63,371 nucleotides of DNA, taken from the IMG/VR virus record IMGVR_UViG_3300045999_004337, one strand, 5' to 3'. The DNA is from an uncultured virus (IMG/VR IMGVR_UViG_3300045999_004337). Its lineage: Duplodnaviria > Heunggongvirae > Uroviricota > Caudoviricetes. A model generated the notes under the pieces. That model worked only from the letters and a program-made list of their open reading frames with translations, did no database searches and was not told the origin of the DNA. Of the stretch, positions 36,596 through 63,074 are shown piece by piece; position 1 is the first letter of the stretch, and each line of letters opens with the position of its first letter. Made by a program: the position numbers and the translations under genes.

Positions 36596-37051
36596 ATGTC
36601 CACCCAAAAGAAGTTTCTGCAAGGATCTTTCATCCCGAAGAACCCCAAGAAGTACAAGGGGGATCCCACGGAGATTATCTATCGCAGTTCTTGGGAAAGA
36701 AGATTCATGAACTACTGCGACAACAAGACATCCATCGTGGAGTGGTCGAGCGAACGCACGATAGTCCCGTATCTCTACGAGGCTGACGGCAGGACTCACC
36801 GATACTTCGTTGACTTCCGCATAGTCGTGGAGGACAAGGAAGGCAAGAGGCAGACCTACCTAGTCGAGATAAAGCCCCACAAGAAGACGATGCCCCCGAA
36901 GAAGCCCAAGCGGCAGACCAAGAGTTACATATACGAGACGCTGGAGTTCGTCAAGAACCAGAACAAGTGGGATGCTGCCAGAAAGTACGCGGAGCAGAGG
37001 GGATGGAAGTTCCTCATACTCACAGAGAACGAACTCAAGATAGGAAAGTGA
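36596..37051 (+). CDS. gp4: Head completion nuclease
   Basis: PKNPKKYKGDP..IIYRSSWE, HRYFVDF, LVEIKP, NQNKWDAA. Confidence 0.95.
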   Translation: MSTQKKFLQGSFIPKNPKKYKGDPTEIIYRSSWERRFMNYCDNKTSIVEWSSERTIVPYLYEADGRTHRYFVDFRIVVEDKEGKRQTYLVEIKPHKKTMPPKKPKRQTKSYIYETLEFVKNQNKWDAARKYAEQRGWKFLILTENELKIGK

Positions 37052-42967: not shown

Positions 42968-43042
42968 GTGCCGTGGGAGGTCTTGGCATCCTCAGCCTGA
43001 TTTATAAACAGGTAAGAACAGGTTCGATTCCTGTACGGCATA
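42968..43042 (+). tRNA. tRNA-Ile(UAU), atypical
   Basis: Acceptor GTGCCGT/ACGGCAT, anticodon arm CCTG-A-TTTATAA-A-CAGG, T-arm ACAGG-TTCGATT-CCTGT. Confidence 0.8.
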
Positions 43043-43051
43043 CATCAACAA

Positions 43052-43104
43052 CCGACCGTGCGCCATGTGGATCCACGCACGGTTCGGAGACTACAAGGAT
43101 CCAC
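43052..43104 (+). ncRNA. Putative H-type pseudoknot leader
   Basis: Stem CCG-ACCGTGCG/CGCACGGT-T-CGG; loop GTGGATCC pairs perfectly with downstream GGATCCAC. Confidence 0.5.
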
Positions 43105-43123
43105 TGACTATGGAGACATCGAC

Positions 43124-43492
43124 ATGATTAGGTTTGTTACTGACAGCGAAAGAAGCGGCAAGAGCGTGACTGGTCTGCTTGCCCTCCTTTTCGGCATCGG
43201 CTTCTTCTGGTTCACCTTCCTCTCACCTGAGACGGTGAACTCTGCCACGAAGGCAAACTACTGCCTCGTCGCGGCTGCTTTGTCGTTCGCGGGATACCTG
43301 TGGTTCCGCCTTCAGGAGACGAAGGCATGGCTCGAAAGCGAGGAGAAGGGTCGCAACGATGACCGCAAGGAAAACTACAGCAACGAGTCCATCCGTGGTC
43401 TGCACGACCGCATCGACCGCCTTGAGGAGCGTTCCAAGTGCAAGAACGGCGGCGGGTGCATGGCAGACAACGAAGACACATTCGGATTGTGA
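43124..43492 (+). CDS. Two-TM membrane protein
   Basis: Two hydrophobic segments followed by a charged tail; GGAG SD. Confidence 0.75.
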   Translation: MIRFVTDSERSGKSVTGLLALLFGIGFFWFTFLSPETVNSATKANYCLVAAALSFAGYLWFRLQETKAWLESEEKGRNDDRKENYSNESIRGLHDRIDRLEERSKCKNGGGCMADNEDTFGL

Positions 43493-43584
43493 GTCAAGTC
43501 CTGACTAAATAGGTTCCGTCCACCTACCTGGGGAAACGACAAGGACGGCAGAGGGGAGCGCATTCTGCGATAACGCTCTTTCGT

Positions 43585-43656
43585 GCGGATGTAACTCAGA
43601 GGTAGAGTCTCGGTTTTCCAAACCGATGGTCGTGGGTTCAAATCCCATCGTCCGCT
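43585..43656 (+). tRNA. tRNA-Gly(UCC)
   Basis: Cloverleaf; TCGGT-TTTCCAA-ACCGA. Confidence 0.95.
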
Positions 43657-43658
43657 TT

Positions 43659-43727
43659 GCGAGTGAGTGAGACGGCAACACACTAGGCTCATAATCTAGG
43701 GAAATGGGTTCGACTCCCATACTCGCT
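43659..43727 (+). tRNA. tRNA-Met/Ile2(CAU), atypical D-arm
   Basis: CTAGG-CTCATAA-TCTAG; T-arm ATGGG-TTCGACT-CCCAT. Confidence 0.85.
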
Positions 43728-43730
43728 ATT

Positions 43731-43804
43731 GTGACTGTAGAACAAATGGATAGTTCAGGAGATTGTGATTCTCCCCGTTGCGGGTTCAAGTCCCGCCAGT
43801 CACC
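43731..43804 (+). tRNA. tRNA-His(GUG)
   Basis: GGAGA-TTGTGAT-TCTCC; C73; no genomic G-1. Confidence 0.93.
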
Positions 43805-43816
43805 CTCTGTGATAAC

Positions 43817-43887
43817 TGCCCGATTGTGTAATGGTAGCACCCGAGACTCTGATTCTCGTTGTCCTGGTTCGAGTCCAGGTTGGGCAA
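43817..43887 (+). tRNA. tRNA-Gln(CUG)
   Basis: CGAGA-CTCTGAT-TCTCG. Confidence 0.95.
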
Positions 43888-43894
43888 CTTTTCC

Positions 43895-43966
43895 GTGGGG
43901 ATAACTCAGTAGGTAGAGTAGCGGACTGAAAATCCGTCAGCGAAGGTTCGATTCCTTCTCCTCACA
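43895..43966 (+). tRNA. tRNA-Phe(GAA)
   Basis: GCGGA-CTGAAAA-TCCGT. Confidence 0.95.
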
Positions 43967-43967
43967 T

Positions 43968-44038
43968 TGGTCTGTAGCACAACGGTAGTGCGCCGTCCTG
44001 TTAGGACGGGGTTACAGGTTCAAATCCTGTCGGACCAG
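43968..44038 (+). tRNA. tRNA-Asn(GUU)
   Basis: CCGTC-CTGTTAG-GACGG; G73. Confidence 0.93.
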
Positions 44039-44039
44039 T

Positions 44040-44112
44040 TGGACTGTGGCTCAGTAGGCAGAGCATTCCCTTGATAAGGGAGAGGTCGTTGGTTCGATTC
44101 CAACCAGTCCTA
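44040..44112 (+). tRNA. tRNA-Ile(GAU)
   Basis: TTCCC-TTGATAA-GGGAG. Confidence 0.93.
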
Positions 44113-44118
44113 TTCGAC

Positions 44119-44201
44119 TGATCGTTTCCCGAGCAGCAAAGGGGAGAGTCTGTAAAACTCTTGGTCTTCGACCTTCGTAGGTGCAAGTCCTACACGATCA
44201 A
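44119..44201 (+). tRNA. tRNA-Tyr(GUA)
   Basis: AGAGT-CTGTAAA-ACTCT; long variable arm GGTC-TTC-GACC. Confidence 0.92.
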
Positions 44202-44210
44202 CTTCAGAGA

Positions 44211-44284
44211 CGGGACATGGCTCAGTTTGGTAGAGCGTTCGCTTTGGGAGCGAGATGTCGCAGGTTCAAATCCTGCTGTCCCGA
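44211..44284 (+). tRNA. tRNA-Pro(UGG)
   Basis: TTCGC-TTTGGGA-GCGAG. Confidence 0.95.
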
Positions 44285-44294
44285 TTGTGTGTCT

Positions 44295-44366
44295 GCCCTC
44301 ATAGTATAGCGGCTATTACCGTTGATTTGTAATCATCAGACCTCAGTTCGATTCTGAGTGGGGGCT
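44295..44366 (+). tRNA. tRNA-Thr(UGU)
   Basis: GTTGA-TTTGTAA-TCATC. Confidence 0.92.
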
Positions 44367-44377
44367 TTCAAAAACCT

Positions 44378-44507
44378 TCCTCTTGCCTGTAATGCGCAAA
44401 GGCTCAAGTAGAGGAGAAAATGGAGAACACCACTCCATTGTGGGTTTCGCGGAAAACGGATTGGGTACTTGCAAAGCCCTACCGAATGTTCCAAGGTTGT
44501 CCCACCA
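44378..44507 (+). ncRNA. Unidentified structured RNA inside the tRNA array
   Basis: Three consecutive hairpins; the last is a long interrupted stem GTGGG...CCCAC ending in CCA. Confidence 0.4.
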
Positions 44508-44511
44508 GTTC

Positions 44512-44585
44512 GGTCTAGTAGATTAGTTGGCTAAATCGTTGGACTTTCACTCCAAAGACCGTGGGTTCGACTCCCACCTAGATCA
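44512..44585 (+). tRNA. tRNA-Glu(UUC)
   Basis: TTGGA-CTTTCAC-TCCAA. Confidence 0.93.
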
Positions 44586-44592
44586 TTCTTCC

Positions 44593-44955
44593 ATGCCATG
44601 CTATGCAATCTCCATCCGTGAAGACACGCAGCACCTCCTCAAGGACGGCGGGGGATACCTCTTCTACAGGAAGAAGTCCCTTGCCGTCGAGGTCTGCGAT
44701 GAGATGAATGCCCTGCGGAAGGGAATGAAACTGGAGCAGGTCTATTCGGTCTGCAAGGTGGACGAGAAGGATTGGAAGGGATACCCCTTCACATACGACA
44801 AGGAGTTCGATGATGACGGTTCCAGAGGAGATGTTCAACGCTATACGAAACGCACGGCACTTCATGCTGGCACTGATGGATCCAAAGCAGACTCCAAAGG
44901 TTCCAAGAGAAGTCCGAAAGAGGGCAAGGGACAGACTCAGGCACTTCCCTTCTGA
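44593..44955 (+). CDS. Hypothetical protein
   Basis: Start MPCYAISI just after tRNA-Glu; 3' end overlaps the next gene. Confidence 0.65.
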   Translation: MPCYAISIREDTQHLLKDGGGYLFYRKKSLAVEVCDEMNALRKGMKLEQVYSVCKVDEKDWKGYPFTYDKEFDDDGSRGDVQRYTKRTALHAGTDGSKADSKGSKRSPKEGKGQTQALPF

Positions 44956-45157
44956 GTTCGACATCAGCGAGATGGAAAAGTTCCATGCCCTCAGGGATCA
45001 GGATCCAAACATCCTTTTCGGAGAGTGCATGAAGAGGCTTGACTCCATCCGTGGGGAGATTACCATAGCGGAGCGAAAGTTGAGCGATGTCGGCAACGAC
45101 ATCGTGACCGCGATCAGGAACACCAGAGGAGGCAACGATGCCCAACAGCAAGGCTAG
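44810..45157 (+). CDS. Hypothetical protein
   Basis: TPKVPREVRKRARDRLRHFP motif seen in phage proteins; AGGAG SD. Confidence 0.8.
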   Translation: MMTVPEEMFNAIRNARHFMLALMDPKQTPKVPREVRKRARDRLRHFPSEFDISEMEKFHALRDQDPNILFGECMKRLDSIRGEITIAERKLSDVGNDIVTAIRNTRGGNDAQQQG

Positions 45158-45404
45158 GAATGTCGCGAGGAAGCACCGCAAGTCCAGGATTCGGTGGAAG
45201 AACAAGAACAAGGCAAGCCTGGCTCTAGCCAAGGACAAGGCATCGAAGCCCAAGAAGAAGGTCTCGGTGTTCGACAGGGCAAGGGCGGCACAGCAGAATG
45301 TTCCCCTGTCGGGGGCAACCCCGTCTGCCGTATCTAACCCGACAGGGGAACGCCGCACCGCTTCGATGATGACTTTCGACGAACTCAAGGCAACTGGAGG
45401 CTGA
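45138..45404 (+). CDS. Basic hypothetical protein
   Basis: GGAGG SD; Lys/Arg-rich. Confidence 0.75.
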   Translation: MPNSKARNVARKHRKSRIRWKNKNKASLALAKDKASKPKKKVSVFDRARAAQQNVPLSGATPSAVSNPTGERRTASMMTFDELKATGG

Positions 45405-45405
45405 G

Positions 45406-45675
45406 ATGGAAAAGACACAGATGGTCGAGTCCCTTCACCGTGGAATCTGCGAGGTGGTGTTCACCAAGGCAGACGGCACGGAGCGCACCATGAAATGCAC
45501 ACGGTCGCAGAGCCATGCTCCCATTTCCGTTCCCGCATCCAACCTCCTGACTGAGGACGGGTCGGTCGGACCCGATGTCATTCCCGTGTGGGATGTCGAG
45601 GCAGGGCAATGGAGGTCGTTCAACGCGAAGTCGGTGAAGTCCTTCCGCTCCGTTGGTTCGTTGCTGAACGGATGA
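45406..45675 (+). CDS. WYL-like/SH3-fold small protein (DUF2693-like)
   Basis: VVFTKADGTERTMKCT...VWDVEAGQWRSF. Confidence 0.85.
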   Translation: MEKTQMVESLHRGICEVVFTKADGTERTMKCTRSQSHAPISVPASNLLTEDGSVGPDVIPVWDVEAGQWRSFNAKSVKSFRSVGSLLNG

Positions 45676-45682
45676 GCGAGTC

Positions 45683-45946
45683 GCCCCTCTAACTCAATGG
45701 TAGAGTAACGGACTTTCAAATGGAACTGCCGTGCAGGAATGCACGGATCGAATCTTGTCAAAGTCGGTGAACTCCCTGTCGAAAGACGAGACAACGCCGA
45801 GCCAAGCGCAGCGATGCGAAGGTGTAGAGACTTGACGGCAAGCACCCAGAACGGGTGAAGGCAAAGTCCAGACCACGAACGGAAGGCGGCGAAAGCCGAA
45901 GTGGTAGGTAATCCGTCAGTTGTGGGTTCGAGTCCCACGGGGGGTA
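45683..45946 (+). tRNA. tRNA-Lys(UUU) interrupted by a group I intron
   Basis: Exons 45683-45716 and 45909-45946 join to ACGGA-CTTT|TAA-TCCGT, giving a normal cloverleaf with A73. Confidence 0.9.
45717..45908 (+). mobile_element. Group I self-splicing intron (192 nt, IC3-like, no homing endonuclease)
   Basis: Preceded by U, ends in G; P1 with U.G; P2 CCGTGCA-GGAA-TGCACGG; P3 CTTGTC/GGCAAG; core AAAGTCGGTGAAC, AACGCCGAGCCAAG, GTAGAGACTT, AAGGCAAAGTCC; P8 CACCC/GGGTG; P9 ACCAC/GTGGT. Confidence 0.9.
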
Positions 45947-45950
45947 TTGC

Positions 45951-46032
45951 GCCAGCGTGGCGGAATGGCATACGCAGGATGCTCAAAACATCCGGATCCT
46001 AGATCGTGCAGGTTCGACTCCTGTCGCTGGTA
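45951..46032 (+). tRNA. tRNA-Leu(CAA)
   Basis: GGATG-CTCAAAA-CATCC; variable arm GATC-CTA-GATC. Confidence 0.93.
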
Positions 46033-47623: not shown

Positions 47624-47663
47624 GGGTTGAACTTTGCTAAATATCTCCACAGAGGAGATTTCC

Positions 47664-48197
47664 ATGAAGACATACAGAGAGTTCGTAGCAGAGGCAGCAT
47701 CCCGTTCCCTTTCCCGCCTACACGGTCACCTACAGGCAGGGCATATGGTGGGGTTCATCTCCGCAAGCCGTGGGAATCTTTCTCCTGCCGAGAACAACAA
47801 GAGGACGAAGGAACTGCACAAGAGCCTCAAGGGGCATGGCTTTACCCCCGTCCCCGTCAAGGGCGAGTACATCGAAGACCACAATGGAGAGAAGAAGAAG
47901 GTAAAGGAGAAGACCTTCATGATCCATTCGGGTCAACTTTACGGTCATGCAGAGAATCCCACGAATGCGCATCGCGAGACGCTTCGCACCTTGAAGACGC
48001 TAGGAGCGCAGCATGATCAAGACACCGTCCTCACCGTCTCCAAGAAGCACGGCAGCGTGTTCCACGGCACGGGCAAGTCGGACTGGGTTCCGAAGGGCAA
48101 GAGGGCGCGTATCGGCGGTGCTGGAATCAGCACGAATGTTGGCGACTTCAACACTCGGTTGAAGGGCAAGAAGTTCATAGTAGGTGGAGGAGACTGA
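47664..48197 (+). CDS. Conserved T4-like phage protein, possibly capsid-internal
   Basis: MKTYREFVAEA leader resembling T4 capsid-targeting sequences; GFISASRG..ENNKRT motif. Confidence 0.8.
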   Translation: MKTYREFVAEAASRSLSRLHGHLQAGHMVGFISASRGNLSPAENNKRTKELHKSLKGHGFTPVPVKGEYIEDHNGEKKKVKEKTFMIHSGQLYGHAENPTNAHRETLRTLKTLGAQHDQDTVLTVSKKHGSVFHGTGKSDWVPKGKRARIGGAGISTNVGDFNTRLKGKKFIVGGGD

Positions 48198-48904: not shown

Positions 48905-49004
48905 GGAACGGCAGTCGGATACCGCGATCTATCCGATGATCATCGTCTAGCATGAGCCAGACGGCGGCAGGGCAAGGGGAGGACGCTCCCCTCCCTGCCG
49001 TTCC
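48905..49004 (+). ncRNA. Putative multi-branched structured RNA
   Basis: Closing helix GGAACGGCAG/CTGCCGTTCC enclosing three hairpins. Confidence 0.45.
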
Positions 49005-49023
49005 TGTTTTACGGAGGCATGTC

Positions 49024-49167
49024 ATGGACAACCGCAGACACAGCGCGGGGAAGGGAGACTCTCCCCGTCCCGTTGACCGCAAGAAGTGGTCGGAGAACTG
49101 GGACAGGATCTTCGGGAAGAAGCCGAAGAAGCAGTCCGTGCAGAAGAAGACCAAGAAGTCACGATAG
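49024..49167 (+). CDS. Small basic protein
   Basis: GKGDSPRPVD..KWSENWDRIF; GGAGG SD. Confidence 0.75.
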   Translation: MDNRRHSAGKGDSPRPVDRKKWSENWDRIFGKKPKKQSVQKKTKKSR

Positions 49168-49181
49168 TCAAACTTCCACAT

Positions 49182-49255
49182 ACACCTGTAACTCAGTAGG
49201 ATAGAGTAACGGTTTTCTAAACCGTCAGTCACAGGTTCGAGTCCTGTCGGGTGTG
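49182..49255 (+). tRNA. tRNA-Arg(UCU)
   Basis: ACGGT-TTTCTAA-ACCGT. Confidence 0.95.
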
Positions 49256-49271
49256 CTTTATGAAACACACA

Positions 49272-49565
49272 ATGCCAAGCAAAACCAAGAAAGTCTATTG
49301 TCGCTACGGGGAAGAACGCCTGATCGTTGACCACGGTCACGGCGTGTACACCATGAGCGGAAAGTGCGGCTACTACCGCGCTGGAAACGACCCATCGGGG
49401 AAGGGGATCGCATTCTTCGATCCTTCGGGTGGTCCGTTCATCGGGAAGGGAGAGATGGGCGTTCCGCTTGATGAGTTCGGTGGTCGCGTGGTCACGGACA
49501 TCATCATCGAATCCGCTGCCGAGGGTCACTTCAAGATCACGGTGGAGACGGAGGAACCCGCTTAG
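49272..49565 (+). CDS. Hypothetical protein
   Basis: CRYG..R and FFDPSGGPFI motifs. Confidence 0.75.
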   Translation: MPSKTKKVYCRYGEERLIVDHGHGVYTMSGKCGYYRAGNDPSGKGIAFFDPSGGPFIGKGEMGVPLDEFGGRVVTDIIIESAAEGHFKITVETEEPA

Positions 49566-49600
49566 GGAGGTGGCTATACATAAAGTAGGAGAACCACCAA

Positions 49601-49960
49601 ATGTACATAACCAGCCTTCTCACTCTTCAGAACCAACTTCGCATATTCCATTGGCAGACCACATCGTATGCGGAGCATGAGGCATTCGGAAAGGCATACG
49701 GAGATCTAGGAGACCTGATCGACACATTCATCGAGACGATGATGGGAAAGAAGGGGAGGATCCTCTCCAGCGGTGGATTCAGCATCCACCTCACCAACTA
49801 CCGCGAGACTGATCCCGTGGCATTCCTCAAGCAGTACGATACCTACCTCACATCGCTGGACGACGAGTTGTTGGAAGGAGACACGGAACTCAAGAACATC
49901 AGGGACGAGATGAAGGGCGTGGTGAACCACACAATCTACCTGCTCACCCTCAACAAGTGA
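49601..49960 (+). CDS. Ferritin/Dps-like four-helix protein
   Basis: HWQTTSYAEHEAFG, DLIDTFIE, NIRDEM...YLLTL. Confidence 0.85.
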   Translation: MYITSLLTLQNQLRIFHWQTTSYAEHEAFGKAYGDLGDLIDTFIETMMGKKGRILSSGGFSIHLTNYRETDPVAFLKQYDTYLTSLDDELLEGDTELKNIRDEMKGVVNHTIYLLTLNK

Positions 49961-49966
49961 GCAAAC

Positions 49967-50238
49967 GACATCGTTGATCTTTGCATACTACCTGGTCACA
50001 CGGGGGTTCGATACCCCCCGACTCCATTCAAACCTACGGGGTCGAACTGGAATCGACGGCTAGATGTTCGCAACAGGGAGATGTCCGAGAGGTCGCTGAC
50101 AACCCTCGTAAAATCCCAATGTCGGCAACCATAAACGCCGCGAACATGCGGATGGCTGCTTGAAGCAGTGGGGTCCGATCCACCCGCGACTGAACGGATC
50201 ATCGGCACAGGGTCTCCGAAAGGAGGCTTTGTGCTTTT
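49967..50238 (+). ncRNA. ssrA: Circularly permuted (two-piece) tmRNA; tag AANMRMAA*
   Basis: Acceptor piece ends GGGGG-TTCGATA-CCCCC-CGACTCC-A (50026); 11-nt spacer; coding piece starts GGGGTCG-AACTGGAATCGAC (50038) with G3.U70; P2 pairings; pseudoknot 1; ATAAAC|GCC resume at 50137; TGA in the loop of GCTGCT/AGCAGT. Confidence 0.9.
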
Positions 50239-50239
50239 C
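50205..50239 (+). terminator. Intrinsic terminator after tmRNA
   Basis: GCACAGGGTCTCC-GAAA-GGAGGCTTTGTGC-TTTT. Confidence 0.7.
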
Positions 50240-50293
50240 GGGAAGCCATAGATAGCCATGTACCCGTGATAGTTTCAGAATGGAGTCACCATC

Positions 50294-50752
50294 ATGGAGC
50301 AGCCCCCTATGGCATTCCTCACACCTGAGTTCATCTCCCTCATCGGAGGAAGCCTCGTCGGCTTCCTCTTCCGCCACATGGCAGAGAAGCGGGAGAACGA
50401 ACGGCAGATGGTCGAGAACATCATCAACCTCAACAAGCAGTCGAACGAGAACCACGACAAGGCTGTCGAAAGGGTTCCCATCGACATGGGCAAGACCATT
50501 CGGCGGATCATCGTCCTCGCGGTGCTGTTTGCCACGATGCTTGCCCCGTTCATCCTTCCGTTCTTCGGCATCCCGACCTTCCTCGAGGTGGATCAGTCCA
50601 ATCCCGACAGGCTCTTCGGGCTGATTCCCGCCTACACGCAGAAGTTCATAGTCGAGATCAACGGGTTCATCTATCCATCCGAGAACAGGCAGATCCTACT
50701 GAGCCTCGTAGGCTTCTACTTCGGCAATGCCGCAGGAAAAGGAAAGACCTAA
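50294..50752 (+). CDS. Multi-TM membrane protein (holin candidate)
   Basis: Three hydrophobic segments, C-terminal VGFYFG. Confidence 0.6.
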   Translation: MEQPPMAFLTPEFISLIGGSLVGFLFRHMAEKRENERQMVENIINLNKQSNENHDKAVERVPIDMGKTIRRIIVLAVLFATMLAPFILPFFGIPTFLEVDQSNPDRLFGLIPAYTQKFIVEINGFIYPSENRQILLSLVGFYFGNAAGKGKT

Positions 50753-51024
50753 TGCGCACAATCACAGCAATCGTCCTCTCTCTCATGCTCTACGGCTGCT
50801 CCGTGACCCCGAAGGTCATCCCCGACGAGACCAAGGGAAGCGCGATGACCCGCAAGATCGACAAGGACACGGAGATGGGCAAGCCGTTACAGACTGGATA
50901 CGGGTGGATCCTCTGGTACATACCCGTTGTCGTGGTCGCGATGGCTTGGGGATACCGAGAGTTCTTCCGAAAGCCGACTCCAGAGGACGATTCGACTCCC
51001 AAGAAGACCAAGAGACGCAAGTAG
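50752..51024 (+). CDS. Lipoprotein with C-terminal TM segment (u-spanin-like architecture)
   Basis: Lipobox LYG|C; TM WILWYIPVVVVAMAWGY; basic tail. Confidence 0.55.
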   Translation: MRTITAIVLSLMLYGCSVTPKVIPDETKGSAMTRKIDKDTEMGKPLQTGYGWILWYIPVVVVAMAWGYREFFRKPTPEDDSTPKKTKRRK

Positions 51025-55503: not shown

Positions 55504-55964
55504 AGAAGACCACGAAGAAGAGCAACAAGAGCAGCGTCCGTCTTGTGAACCAGCCGCTTTCCGAATGGCGGGTGGTCGCACGAAAGTACGAGAAGCCTAC
55601 CCAGGAGATTTTCGATGAGAATCAACGATGGATTCCAGGTGGTGTCCGTTTCGTGATCTGCAAGGTCTGCTATGACTCGAAGGGAAAGCCCAATGGCATC
55701 GTGGAATATCCCGACACAACGGTACGGGTGAACTATTCCGACTACGAAGGCAAGGACGAGTTTCAGCGTCCCTTGCACAAGGCAGAGCAGGAGAGCCGAC
55801 AAAACCTCAGGGACATGATGAGGGCGTGGCATCTTCCGATCCTTGAGGAGATCGACCGCACGGGAGACTACCGCATCCGCGAGTGGAAGGGAACCAAGGA
55901 GTTCAACCGACTGGAACGACTGTGCGACTGCCCCAAGAAGACCAAGAGGAAGACCAAGCGATGA
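55500..55964 (+). CDS. Hypothetical protein
   Basis: ATGA overlap. Confidence 0.75.
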   Translation: MKKTTKKSNKSSVRLVNQPLSEWRVVARKYEKPTQEIFDENQRWIPGGVRFVICKVCYDSKGKPNGIVEYPDTTVRVNYSDYEGKDEFQRPLHKAEQESRQNLRDMMRAWHLPILEEIDRTGDYRIREWKGTKEFNRLERLCDCPKKTKRKTKR

Positions 55965-57208
55965 ATGAACTGAACCCCAACCTCCCGTTCCATACCTTCC
56001 ATAAGAACATCCTCGCGGAAGACGAGCATGAGATCCGCAACCTCGACAGCGTCATGGCTGCGATGAACAGCGTCCTCGACACGCCGACCGTGCTTGAGGC
56101 GGCGATCATGCCCGATGCCTGTCCCGTGGGCAAGGACGAGATCCCCGTGGGAGGCGTGGTCGTCACCTGGAATGCGATCCACCCCCGAATGCACAGCGCG
56201 GATGTCTGTTGTTCCGTGATGGCTACGGATCTCGGCTATGCCGATCCCAAGATGGTTCTTGATCTCGCACAGGCGGTCACGCACTTCGGGATCGGCGGAC
56301 GGTCGCCCGACTTCGAGATCGGTCTTCCCGAAAACCTGAAGGCTCGTATCGAAGCCAATCCGTTCCTCAACAACCAGAAGAGCCTCTTCTGCGCTCAGTC
56401 GCACCTCGGGACGCAGGGGGACGGCAACCACTTCCTGTTCGTCGGTCGCAGCAAGAACACGGGTCGCACGATGCTCGTCACCCACCACGGAAGCCGTGGG
56501 TTCGGAGCGAATCTCTACAAGGAAGGCGTTAGGGTGGCGGAATCTTTCCTGAAGAAGATCGATCCGAAGGTCAATCCCAAGAACGCATGGATCCCTGCGG
56601 ACACGCAGGAAGGACACGACTACTGGGAAGCCCTCCAGATCGTCCGCTGTTGGACGAAGTACAACCACATCGTCATCCACGATGTGGTCGAGCAGGTGTC
56701 GTGGGCAGACCGCGTCTCGCGGTTTTGGAACGAACACAACTTCGTGTTCAGGGACGGTGACCGCTTCTATCATGCAAAGGGCGCAACCCCGATGTGCAAC
56801 AAGTTCGTCCCCGACTCGATTGATGGTCTGCGCCTGATCCCCCTCAACATGGGACAGCCGATCCTGATCGCCAAGGCGGTTCCCGATGCCCGACTCACGA
56901 ACGGCATCGGCTTCGCTCCCCACGGCGCGGGTCGGAACTTCAGCCGCACGGAACACAAGCGGACGAAGTTGGTCGGCAAGACGGTCGAGGAGGTGTTCGC
57001 TGAGGAGACGGCGGGGCTTGATGTCCGCTTCTACTCGGGCAAGATCGATGTGAGCGAACTTCCTAGTGCCTACAAGGACGCGGAGAAGGTGAAGGATCAG
57101 ATCCGACACTTCAACCTCGCGACCATCGTGGACGAGATCATGCCCTACGGGTGCATCATGGCGGGAGAGATGGAGAAGCCTTGGCAGAAGAAGAAGGAGA
57201 GCAAGTGA
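55961..57208 (+). CDS. rtcB: RNA 2',3'-cyclic phosphate/3'-P-5'-OH ligase RtcB
   Basis: MPDACP, PVGGV, SADVCCS, GTQGDGNHF, HHGSRG, HNF, HAKGATP, PHGAGR, ELPSAYK. Confidence 0.95.
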   Translation: MNELNPNLPFHTFHKNILAEDEHEIRNLDSVMAAMNSVLDTPTVLEAAIMPDACPVGKDEIPVGGVVVTWNAIHPRMHSADVCCSVMATDLGYADPKMVLDLAQAVTHFGIGGRSPDFEIGLPENLKARIEANPFLNNQKSLFCAQSHLGTQGDGNHFLFVGRSKNTGRTMLVTHHGSRGFGANLYKEGVRVAESFLKKIDPKVNPKNAWIPADTQEGHDYWEALQIVRCWTKYNHIVIHDVVEQVSWADRVSRFWNEHNFVFRDGDRFYHAKGATPMCNKFVPDSIDGLRLIPLNMGQPILIAKAVPDARLTNGIGFAPHGAGRNFSRTEHKRTKLVGKTVEEVFAEETAGLDVRFYSGKIDVSELPSAYKDAEKVKDQIRHFNLATIVDEIMPYGCIMAGEMEKPWQKKKESK

Positions 57209-62983: not shown

Positions 62984-63057
62984 GTCCGCATGGCGCAATT
63001 GGATAGCGCAAGTCGGTCCTAACGATTAGGTTGCAGGTTCGAGTCCTGCTGCGGACG
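62984..63057 (+). tRNA. tRNA-Arg(CCU)
   Basis: AGTCG-GTCCTAA-CGATT; acceptor GTCCGCA/TGCGGAC. Confidence 0.92.
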
Positions 63058-63074
63058 CTTTGGTGGTTTTCACA

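Follow-up and report, generated by a model that had tools for sequence, protein, structure and literature searches.

A circularly permuted tmRNA gene of an uncultured freshwater T4-like phage belongs to a viral family with a conserved eight-residue tag

Positions 49967 to 50238 of a viral DNA of 63,371 nucleotides (IMG/VR record IMGVR_UViG_3300045999_004337; the whole stretch is hereafter called the window) read like a tmRNA whose two halves stand in reversed order, and a sequence-only reading had taken them for a circularly permuted, phage-encoded tmRNA of minimal design. Is this a gene at all, is it of a kind already known, and what could it do for the phage that carries it? To our knowledge, the role of phage tmRNAs has been shown by nobody. 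Here, we demonstrate the anatomy, the conservation and the covariation of the window gene, which is a genuine, conserved gene of a known kind, the permuted tmRNA, and we infer for it a role in ribosome rescue. Two-piece tmRNAs of phages have already been published as a kind; what is new, and apparently undescribed, is a large phage family with a conserved tag of eight residues (hereafter the MAA-tag family).

The window covers part of the genome of an uncultured T4-like myovirus from fresh water. Its GC content is ~54%. Genes for a tail sheath, a large terminase and baseplate proteins are present, as are a T4 baseplate domain, 15 tRNA genes, an RtcB ligase and a CobS-like ATPase. Identity of the large terminase to the proteins of Synechococcus cyanophages and Methylophilales phage Melnitz is 58-59%, and that of the tail sheath to its counterparts in T4-like phages of Proteobacteria is 41-48%; no close cultured phage was found. 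An identical tmRNA is carried by the nearest record, G001 (34% complete). Sequence of the window turns up again in metagenome runs from lakes and fresh water, all of them DNA contigs: 16 rows contain at least half of the sampled words, and 10 of these may be the source itself.

ARAGORN makes a permuted call (tmRNA*) at 49936-50254 with the tag AANMRMAA*. The Rfam model RF04321 (tmRNA_permuted) aligns to 49967-50163 over model positions 1-213 of 213 with 57.1 bits (E 1.4e-10; gathering score 47), the acceptor 3′ strand lying upstream of the 5′ strand and thus in the permuted order of the model. A circularly permuted phage tmRNA gene with an intact tag frame, as had been proposed, is borne out by these two calls, although none of the other full-length calls that were compared scores so low (76-172 bits for the other viral permuted tmRNAs called by ARAGORN). 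RF04321 is a merged model built from the alpha, beta and cyano classes (PMC11915505), and on the window gene the three class models all remain below their cut-offs: RF01851 (cyano_tmRNA) reaches 40.4 bits against 70 over model positions 52-124 only, RF01850 (beta_tmRNA) 36.3 bits against 84 over positions 84-160 only, and RF01849 (alpha_tmRNA) 24.6 bits against 50 over positions 90-166 only (identical copy in G001). These three matches are local and confined to the tRNA-like core. The check that the sequence-only reading had asked of ARAGORN and of the permuted and class models has returned a permuted call together with three missed class cut-offs, and the window gene thus fits none of the three bacterial class models.

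A protein-coding reading of the same region was rejected, the four ORFs that overlap it on either strand being without a Pfam or PHROG match. The Rfam search of the window gave no glutamine riboswitch at the gathering threshold.

The features of the gene are collected in Table 1. Direct reading finds everything that had been described for the tRNA-like domain, namely the T-arm, a 7-bp acceptor stem with G3.U70, the discriminator A73 and the 11-nt spacer; the T-loop is of the GTTCGA type. The three P2 pairings are all present in the window sequence, and the pairings of PK1, a pseudoknot between the tRNA-like domain and the resume codon, appear in the pair print-out along with a single further pseudoknot, as claimed. 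The resume context, with its alanine codon GCC, and the tag with its in-frame stop and Ala-Ala end are likewise confirmed, and the UGA does lie in a hairpin loop. Only for the terminator is the outcome divided: the minimum free energy (MFE) fold has the 14-bp hairpin followed by a U run, whereas a consensus scanner for terminators left this hairpin unflagged, the U run being of 4 only. On the predicted fold, the terminal hairpin is likely to be an intrinsic terminator.

Table 1. Features of the window gene and its upstream neighbour, all on the + strand. The last two columns give the percentage of paired cells and the number of pairs with changes on both sides in an alignment (A1) of 23 short-spacer members of the MAA-tag family.
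Feature	Coordinates	Basis	Cells paired (%)	Both-side change
Upstream gene DUF5856 / phrog_858; stop codon 6 nt before tmRNA	49601..49960			
Acceptor piece: P2 strands, T-arm, acceptor 3′ strand, A73	49967..50026	Rfam alignment, direct reading		
P2a 5′ strand GACATC; partner GATGTC 50080-50085	49967..49972	printed pairs; A1 pairing	99.3	2/6
GTTGAT box, directly 3′ of P2a 5′ strand	49973-49978	invariant in A1		
P2b 5′ strand TTGC; partner GCAA 50070-50073	49981..49984	printed pairs, MFE fold		
P2c 5′ strand CTGGTC; partner GGCTAG 50058-50063, 2 G.U pairs	49992..49997	printed pairs, MFE fold		
T-arm: GGGGG 50002-50006, loop TTCGATA, CCCCC 50014-50018	50002..50018	direct reading, Rfam	100	4/5
Acceptor 3′ strand CGACTCC 50019-50025, discriminator A73 50026	50019..50026	direct reading, printed pairs	100 (acceptor helix)	3/7 (acceptor helix)
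Spacer TTCAAACCTAC, 11 nt	50027..50037	direct reading; removal on maturation presumed		
Coding piece: 5′ acceptor strand, D-loop analogue, P2 3′ strands, PK1, tag, PK2	50038..50203	ARAGORN, Rfam		
Acceptor 5′ strand GGGGTCG; forms G3.U70 with 3′ strand	50038-50044	direct reading		
PK1: CGAG 50086-50089/CTCG 50105-50108 (stem 1), GCTGACA 50095-50101/TGTCGGC 50120-50126 (stem 2)	50086..50126	printed pairs	100 (stem 1); 85.4 (stem 2)	2/4 (stem 1); 3/7 (stem 2)
Resume context ATAAAC, then GCC	50137	direct reading		
Tag frame GCC..GCT TGA = AANMRMAA + stop	50137..50163	ARAGORN		
Hairpin CTGCT/AGCAG, stop TGA 50161-50163 in loop	50156..50168	direct reading, printed pairs		
PK2: GGGT 50171-50174/ACCC 50182-50185 (stem 1), GATCC 50177-50181/GGATC 50196-50200 (stem 2)	50171..50200	printed pairs	82.6 (stem 1); 82.5 (stem 2)	1/4 (stem 1); 4/5 (stem 2)
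Terminal 14-bp hairpin (50204-50235), GAAA loop, then CUUUUC	50204..50239	MFE fold		

The MFE fold of the whole tmRNA stretch has -103.3 kcal/mol (z -3.02), and none of 200 shuffled sequences was as stable. The T-arm, the terminal hairpin and the P2 helices all appear in it; an acceptor stem spanning the 11-nt spacer does not.

Does the window gene have relatives? A blastn search with the gene against all fetched loci flagged the locus L048, a permuted tmRNA by Rfam (~85 bits) with the tag ANYMAMAA, which the family HMMs also recovered and which ARAGORN overlooked, presumably because its spacer is ~167 nt long. We define the MAA-tag family by the stop-hairpin motif ATGGCTGCTT(1-2 nt)AGCAGTGGGG, an 8-codon tag, an acceptor piece of 60-62 nt, the GTTGAT box and the absence of CCA, and the window gene has all of these. 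A scan of IMG/VR with the stop-hairpin motif gave at least 119 viral loci. Among the matches listed, 118 of 119 have an 8-codon tag ending in MAA, the remaining locus ending inside the tag at a contig cut, and the tags follow the pattern xxx[ML]xMAA: AAPMRMAA (54 loci), ANQLAMAA (17), ANELAMAA (13), AAPMAMAA (12), ANEMAMAA and ANYMAMAA (5 each), AAPLRMAA (4), ANQMAMAA (2), AANMRMAA (2, both identical copies of the window gene), and AAQMRMAA, ANNLAMAA, GAPMRMAA and AEPMAMAA (1 each).

Permutation runs through the family as well. Complete permuted tRNA-like domains were parsed at 106 of the 119 loci among the matches listed, inspection shows permutation at two further loci, and the remaining 11 are truncated where their contigs end; every listed locus with sufficient upstream sequence is permuted. 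The parser demanded G3.U70, and the two full-length failures both carry G3.U70 and failed on other mismatches. Again among the matches listed, the acceptor piece measures 60-62 nt in 101 of 101 loci with the GTTGAT box, the spacers range from 5 to 167 nt, and the parsed loci have 13 different acceptor-stem combinations and encode CCA in 0 of 106 cases. The sequence-only reading had thought an acceptor piece of about 60 nt and an 8-codon tag peculiar to this gene; both turn out to be traits of the family.

The family HMMs were built from an alignment that includes the window sequence, and they score the window copy with 120.7 bits for the coding piece, where the match spans 50038..50203, and 47.4 bits for the acceptor piece. 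RF04321 is passed by 15 of 15 members tested (51.7-85.2 bits), whereas 14 of these 15 fail all three class models and one, L361, just passes the alpha model (55.0). MAA-tag genes are likely to be unannotated, because ARAGORN missed the long-spacer L048 and the class Rfam models miss nearly the whole family. In a blastn search of 50,697 phage records, neither the gene region nor the relative L279 had a match, a pattern scan of metagenome contigs gave 27 loci with none from the family, and a full-text search of the literature found none of six family tags. The family thus appears to be undescribed so far, and the sequence tables of the tmRNA database may already list such genes. For the question of what phage tmRNAs do, these viral contigs with their near-invariant tag provide a sharply defined object, and the series of spacer lengths among the matches listed could reveal how permuted precursors are processed and which residues of the tag are key.

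Is the structure conserved along with the tag? In the alignment of 23 short-spacer members, in which the structure counted is that of the sequence-only reading, mapped from the window sequence, 85.3% of cells are paired, compared with 77.8% after shuffling (0 of 500 shuffles reach 85.3%) and 35.6-49.5% with slid partners, it being understood that the structure derives from one aligned sequence and that the members were picked by motif. Changes on both sides occur at 25 pairs, and G3.U70 is retained in 23 of 23 members. The covariation supports the acceptor stem, the T-arm, P2a and both pseudoknots (Table 1). Stem 1 of PK2 has three near-constant pairs, two of them invariant G-C pairs and the third a G-C pair in 22 of 23 members. 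The conservation of P2b and P2c is unsupported in this alignment, with 42.4% and 52.9% of cells paired, respectively, and misalignment may account for these low values; cofolding of the P2 strands gave a mean z of -0.95, with values below -2 in 10 of 68 members and -0.91 for the window copy. The stop hairpin is invariant in the family and, since it is the search motif, uninformative on structure.

What surrounds the gene gives an indication of how it might be expressed and which factors it might use. A scan of 49000-50800 gave 0 sigma-70-like promoter sites, which suggests co-transcription with the upstream gene. The gene itself ends without a 3′-terminal CCA, reading CTCCA and then TTC, and SmpB is not among the 38 window ORFs scanned, as the sequence-only reading had noted on both counts. 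It had gone on to treat the missing CCA as a peculiarity; this does not hold, since CCA is also encoded by none of the 15 tRNA genes in the window (13 of them continue with T) and by none of the 106 parsed relatives. The trailer of the tmRNA, TTCAAA, is similar to those of the tRNA genes of the same phage, in particular to that of tRNA-Thr. Domains of SmpB and of CCA-adding enzyme were absent from five viral records that bear family members (fragments, 34-76% complete), which points to reliance on host factors.

We consider it probable that the window gene is a functional two-piece (circularly permuted) ssrA of this phage, acting by the following steps. The transcript would be shared with the upstream genes and would end at the gene's own hairpin. 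Host RNase P would cleave the precursor 5′ of G50038, the 11-nt trailer would be trimmed to A50026, probably by RNase Z, and the host CCA-adding enzyme would extend the 3′ end; processing of permuted precursors by RNase P and tRNase Z has been proposed (PMC3985003). The acceptor piece (~60 nt) and the coding piece (~165 nt) would be held together by the acceptor stem and P2, and G3.U70 would lead to charging by the host alanyl-tRNA synthetase. With host SmpB and EF-Tu, the charged RNA would enter stalled ribosomes, resume at GCC 50137 and add (A)AANMRMAA, the C-terminal Ala-Ala of which probably marks the product for host Clp-type proteolysis. In E. coli, the C-terminal Ala-Ala of the tag is linked to proteolysis. 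The likely benefit would be that ribosomes stay available to the phage during the cleavage of host and phage mRNAs, a role with which the 15 tRNA genes and the nearby RtcB ligase agree.

Natural variants bear on whether the RNA is kept for its tag. Over 49600-50658, a contig from sequencing run X20 shows 77 differences and 8 gaps relative to the window. Within the upstream gene, 29 substitutions fall in 49679-49909. There are no substitutions in 49910-50058, a stretch that begins with the final 50 nt of that gene and takes in the entire acceptor piece, the spacer and the acceptor 5′ strand. Pairing is preserved in 3 of 3 changes at paired positions: 50059 G>A in P2c turns a U.G pair into U-A, 50123 C>T in stem 2 of PK1 turns G-C into G.U, and 50210 G>A in the terminal hairpin turns G.U into A-U. 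The tag of this variant is AAPMRMAA with frame, length and stop kept, a 1-nt deletion converting TGA into TAA and so maintaining the stop. The pattern of change in X20 shows what is expected of a constrained RNA. A contig from a further run, X16, has 14 differences over 49999-50193.

Could the RNA instead be a decoy that binds host SmpB or alanyl-tRNA synthetase and so blocks trans-translation in the host? There is a model for such an action in the tag-less tmRNA-like RNA of mycobacteriophage DS6A, which is cited in PMC11915505 as inhibiting endogenous tmRNA in E. coli and which, like the window gene, brings a phage-borne tRNA-like domain into contact with the host trans-translation machinery. 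Moreover, neither the 38 window ORFs scanned nor the five fragmentary records yielded a phage smpB, so the RNA would have to compete for host SmpB. A pure decoy, however, has no need of a tag frame, and the window gene, unlike the reportedly inhibitory DS6A RNA, keeps a conserved tag frame, PK1 and resume context. The 8-codon frame, the stop and the MAA end persist in 118 of 119 relatives among the matches listed, the one other being cut inside the tag, and the X20 variant retains frame and stop through several changes. We therefore regard a decoy as quite improbable and return to ribosome rescue as the preferred role.

If the RNA does rescue ribosomes, the tag might still send its products to another fate, such as slower or faster decay or a different protease, and the phage would then reprogramme quality control rather than merely boost it. 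The tag is indeed unlike the other viral permuted tags seen, which have 10-23 residues and are of the ANDxxxALAA or ANKIV type, the pattern xxx[ML]xMAA is conserved across the family among the matches listed, and the literature searched holds none of the six family tags sought. Nonetheless, all tags read among the matches listed end in Ala-Ala, which within ALAA has been named as the protease target (PMC3985003), bacterial tags as short as two residues (Ala-Ala) exist (PMC11915505), and the window showed no gene for a protease or an adaptor. A separate fate of the tagged product seems unlikely to us in view of these points, and tagging for host proteolysis remains the reading that we favour.

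How does the window gene compare with the two-piece tmRNAs that are known already? The sequence-only reading had known phage tmRNAs as one-piece genes. This is contradicted by the 53 unique permuted tmRNAs reported among 18,146 phage genomes, 50 of them aquatic (Buchholz et al. 2022, PMC9004378), which include phiCbK-like Caulobacter phages, pelagimyophages and cyanophages, e.g. S-CRM01 (PMC9004378, Table S1), and also by our own confirmation of the gene in the freshwater cyanophage S-CRM01 (RF04321 82.5 bits, ARAGORN tmRNA*, adjoining tRNA genes). Published examples of phage ssrA are those of Methylophilales phage Melnitz and of the pelagimyophages HTVC008M and Mosig (PMC9004378). Like the window gene, the published genes are permuted and reside on large aquatic phages with tRNA genes, and no phage smpB is reported for them. 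In contrast, they have no blastn match with the window gene, and the published phage copies that were scored pass the beta or cyano model and have tags of 10-23 residues, whereas the window gene stays below the cut-off of every class model and its MAA tag has eight residues. The lack of a glutamine riboswitch match at the gathering threshold is a further difference.

The same comparison disposes of the terms "minimal" and "streamlined" that had been applied to the gene, since PK1, the tag and one further pseudoknot make up the typical two-piece layout (PMC3985003). This topology, with the acceptor piece first, is common to the window gene and the bacterial alpha, beta and cyano classes, although the matches to these classes are only local ones in the core. 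When IMG/VR was scanned with a pattern for permuted tRNA-like domains that have short spacers, 33 loci emerged, 28 of which ARAGORN calls tmRNA*; spacers were 5-31 nt long, and the cyanophage-type copies are without CCA. Most of the other viral permuted tmRNAs called by ARAGORN pass the beta or the cyano cut-off. As a side observation, the S-CRM01 record is without annotation of its permuted tmRNA.

Might the window gene have been acquired from a host only recently, or be a remnant in decay that is useless to the phage? Cyanophage-borne tmRNAs have host-like tags and pass the cyanobacterial model, and tmRNA genes are discussed as integration sites in PMC9004378. Against capture or decay, the family is widespread on viral contigs and displays purifying selection and compensatory changes, the window gene is complete and not a mere 3′ fragment, and an integrase is absent among the window proteins scanned. 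On the bacterial side, a scan of bacterial genome contigs with a loose pattern gave at least 120 loci, and ARAGORN found a tmRNA at none of the 120 listed, while a positive control worked. The exact family motif was sought in 401 genomes from the phylum of G006 (Rhodanobacter) and in 401 from the phylum of G007 (a Pirellulaceae MAG); the single match is at the level of the reversed-pattern control and is not a tmRNA, so that the motif lies in no tmRNA of the 802 sampled genomes. This bacterial search is weak, given the loose pattern in the one case and an exact motif in 802 genomes in the other, and this leaves some room for a bacterial source. All in all, we hold a recent capture or a useless remnant to be highly improbable, and a functional phage gene remains our preferred reading.

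Where, then, did the permutation arise? The neighbourhood of the gene offers a comparison. We collected 58 loci with homologues of the upstream DUF5856 gene (60 less two near-identical copies) and scanned 54 of them with ARAGORN, which called a one-piece tmRNA in L063 and L065 and a permuted one in none. These one-piece genes resemble the MAA-tag family in having tRNA genes and DUF5856 in their neighbourhood and in not encoding CCA. They differ from the permuted family in their standard gene order, with four pseudoknot regions and 130.8 bits on RF00023, and their tag, ANTQYRLAA, has nine residues and an LAA end as opposed to the eight residues of the family. When the coding-piece HMM was run against 136 loci, the only matches outside the family were these two one-piece tmRNAs (26.1 bits, E 1.3e-6), whereas the best other permuted tmRNA reached 11.2 bits. 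In addition, the GGAATCGA variant of the tRNA-like domain occurs both in family members and in at least 14 one-piece phage tmRNAs.

A phage origin of the permutation is conceivable because the HMM matches one-piece genes in the same slot, because the GGAATCGA variant is common to both, and because of a repeat at L063 described below. According to this proposal, the MAA-tag family would be a further independent permutation, born in phages from a one-piece tmRNA by tandem duplication and not taken from the alpha-, beta- or cyanobacteria, and its tag would be a phage-specific degron. The failure of the window gene and of 14 of the 15 relatives tested in all class models speaks for it. On the other hand, the 26-bit similarity comes partly from general tmRNA features, the beta model, the best class model in 11 of the 15 members tested, aligns to these 11 over its full length, if weakly (25.5-63.4 bits), and bacteria have barely been sampled. 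We put this origin forward tentatively and consider it, as a whole, somewhat doubtful. Should the permutation be phage-born, it would add an origin of two-piece tmRNA beyond the three bacterial lineages cited in the literature.

The locus L063 carries what could be a trace of such an event. On the 3′ side of its one-piece gene lies a 25-nt direct repeat of the gene's own 5′ region, 84% identical and at a spacing of 336 nt, i.e. one gene length, which looks like a partial tandem duplicate. At the repeat junction, Rfam detects a weak permuted tRNA-like domain of 30 bits. If the permutation is phage-born, this duplicate would be a candidate intermediate.

The spacer between the acceptor piece and the coding piece of the permuted tmRNA gene is about 71-99 nt long in five of the viral contig loci compared (L260, L275, L294, L278 and L313), and reaches 167 nt in L279/L048. 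These long spacers may have a fold of their own or contain a separate element. Conserved sequence is common to them, as in TTAGCCTAA..GATGGCGA..CAAGTCC..GCAG..GGGGCA..AGTCCTAGGCT, and the 167-nt type carries conserved GGTTAGCGGCGTGGTAGGGACACGC. A tRNA-like element also recurs within the approximately 100 nt upstream of the tmRNA in L289, L294, L278 and L258; it is closed by a stem of 7 bp (in L289, GCGTAGT...ACTACGC) and has a T-arm-like GAGGTGCAAGTCCTC and a long insert, and ARAGORN called it in none of these four loci.

Two other arrangements occur on viral contigs. Downstream of the one-piece gene in L063, a locus on the contig that also contains L401, lies a 25-nt direct repeat of the tmRNA 5' region (84% identical), spaced by 336 nt, exactly one gene length. 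The gene with its repeat looks like a partial tandem duplicate; the gene/repeat junction scores 30 bits on the Rfam permuted model. L381 has the same tmRNA 5' motif, and about 285 nt downstream lies a group I intron that scores 83.2 bits on RF00028, which suggests an intron-form phage tmRNA.

In the RefSeq record of cyanophage S-CRM01, the neighboring tRNA genes are annotated and the permuted tmRNA is left without a feature. Cyanophage-type permuted tmRNA-like genes also lie within tRNA clusters in L004 and L006, and both contain an NNIVSFRRT-like frame; neither was called by ARAGORN. L004, the one locus of this pair scored with Rfam, fell below the cut-offs of both the general permuted model (RF04321, 44.3 bits against 47) and the cyanobacterial model (RF01851, 54.2 bits against 70).

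Locations of tmRNA loci and of other genes in the window
Feature	Location	Remarks
S-CRM01 permuted tmRNA	L136:1404-1713	NC_015569 ~88.3-88.5 kb; tag ANNVVKFRRTAVTSLVAAL
One-piece phage tmRNA	L063:926-1260	with repeat, 926-1295
Possible intron-form phage tmRNA	L381:806-1043	viral contig
tRNA genes (15)	window 42968-46032, 49182-49256, 62984-63058	12 within 42968-44585
RtcB RNA ligase	window 55883-57208	
S-adenosylmethionine lyase family member	window 47634-48197	
TnsA-like endonuclease N-terminal domain	window 36596-37051	

None of the 15 tRNA genes of the window encodes CCA, and several directly adjoin one another with no spacer. The TnsA-like domain is located amid the tail genes.
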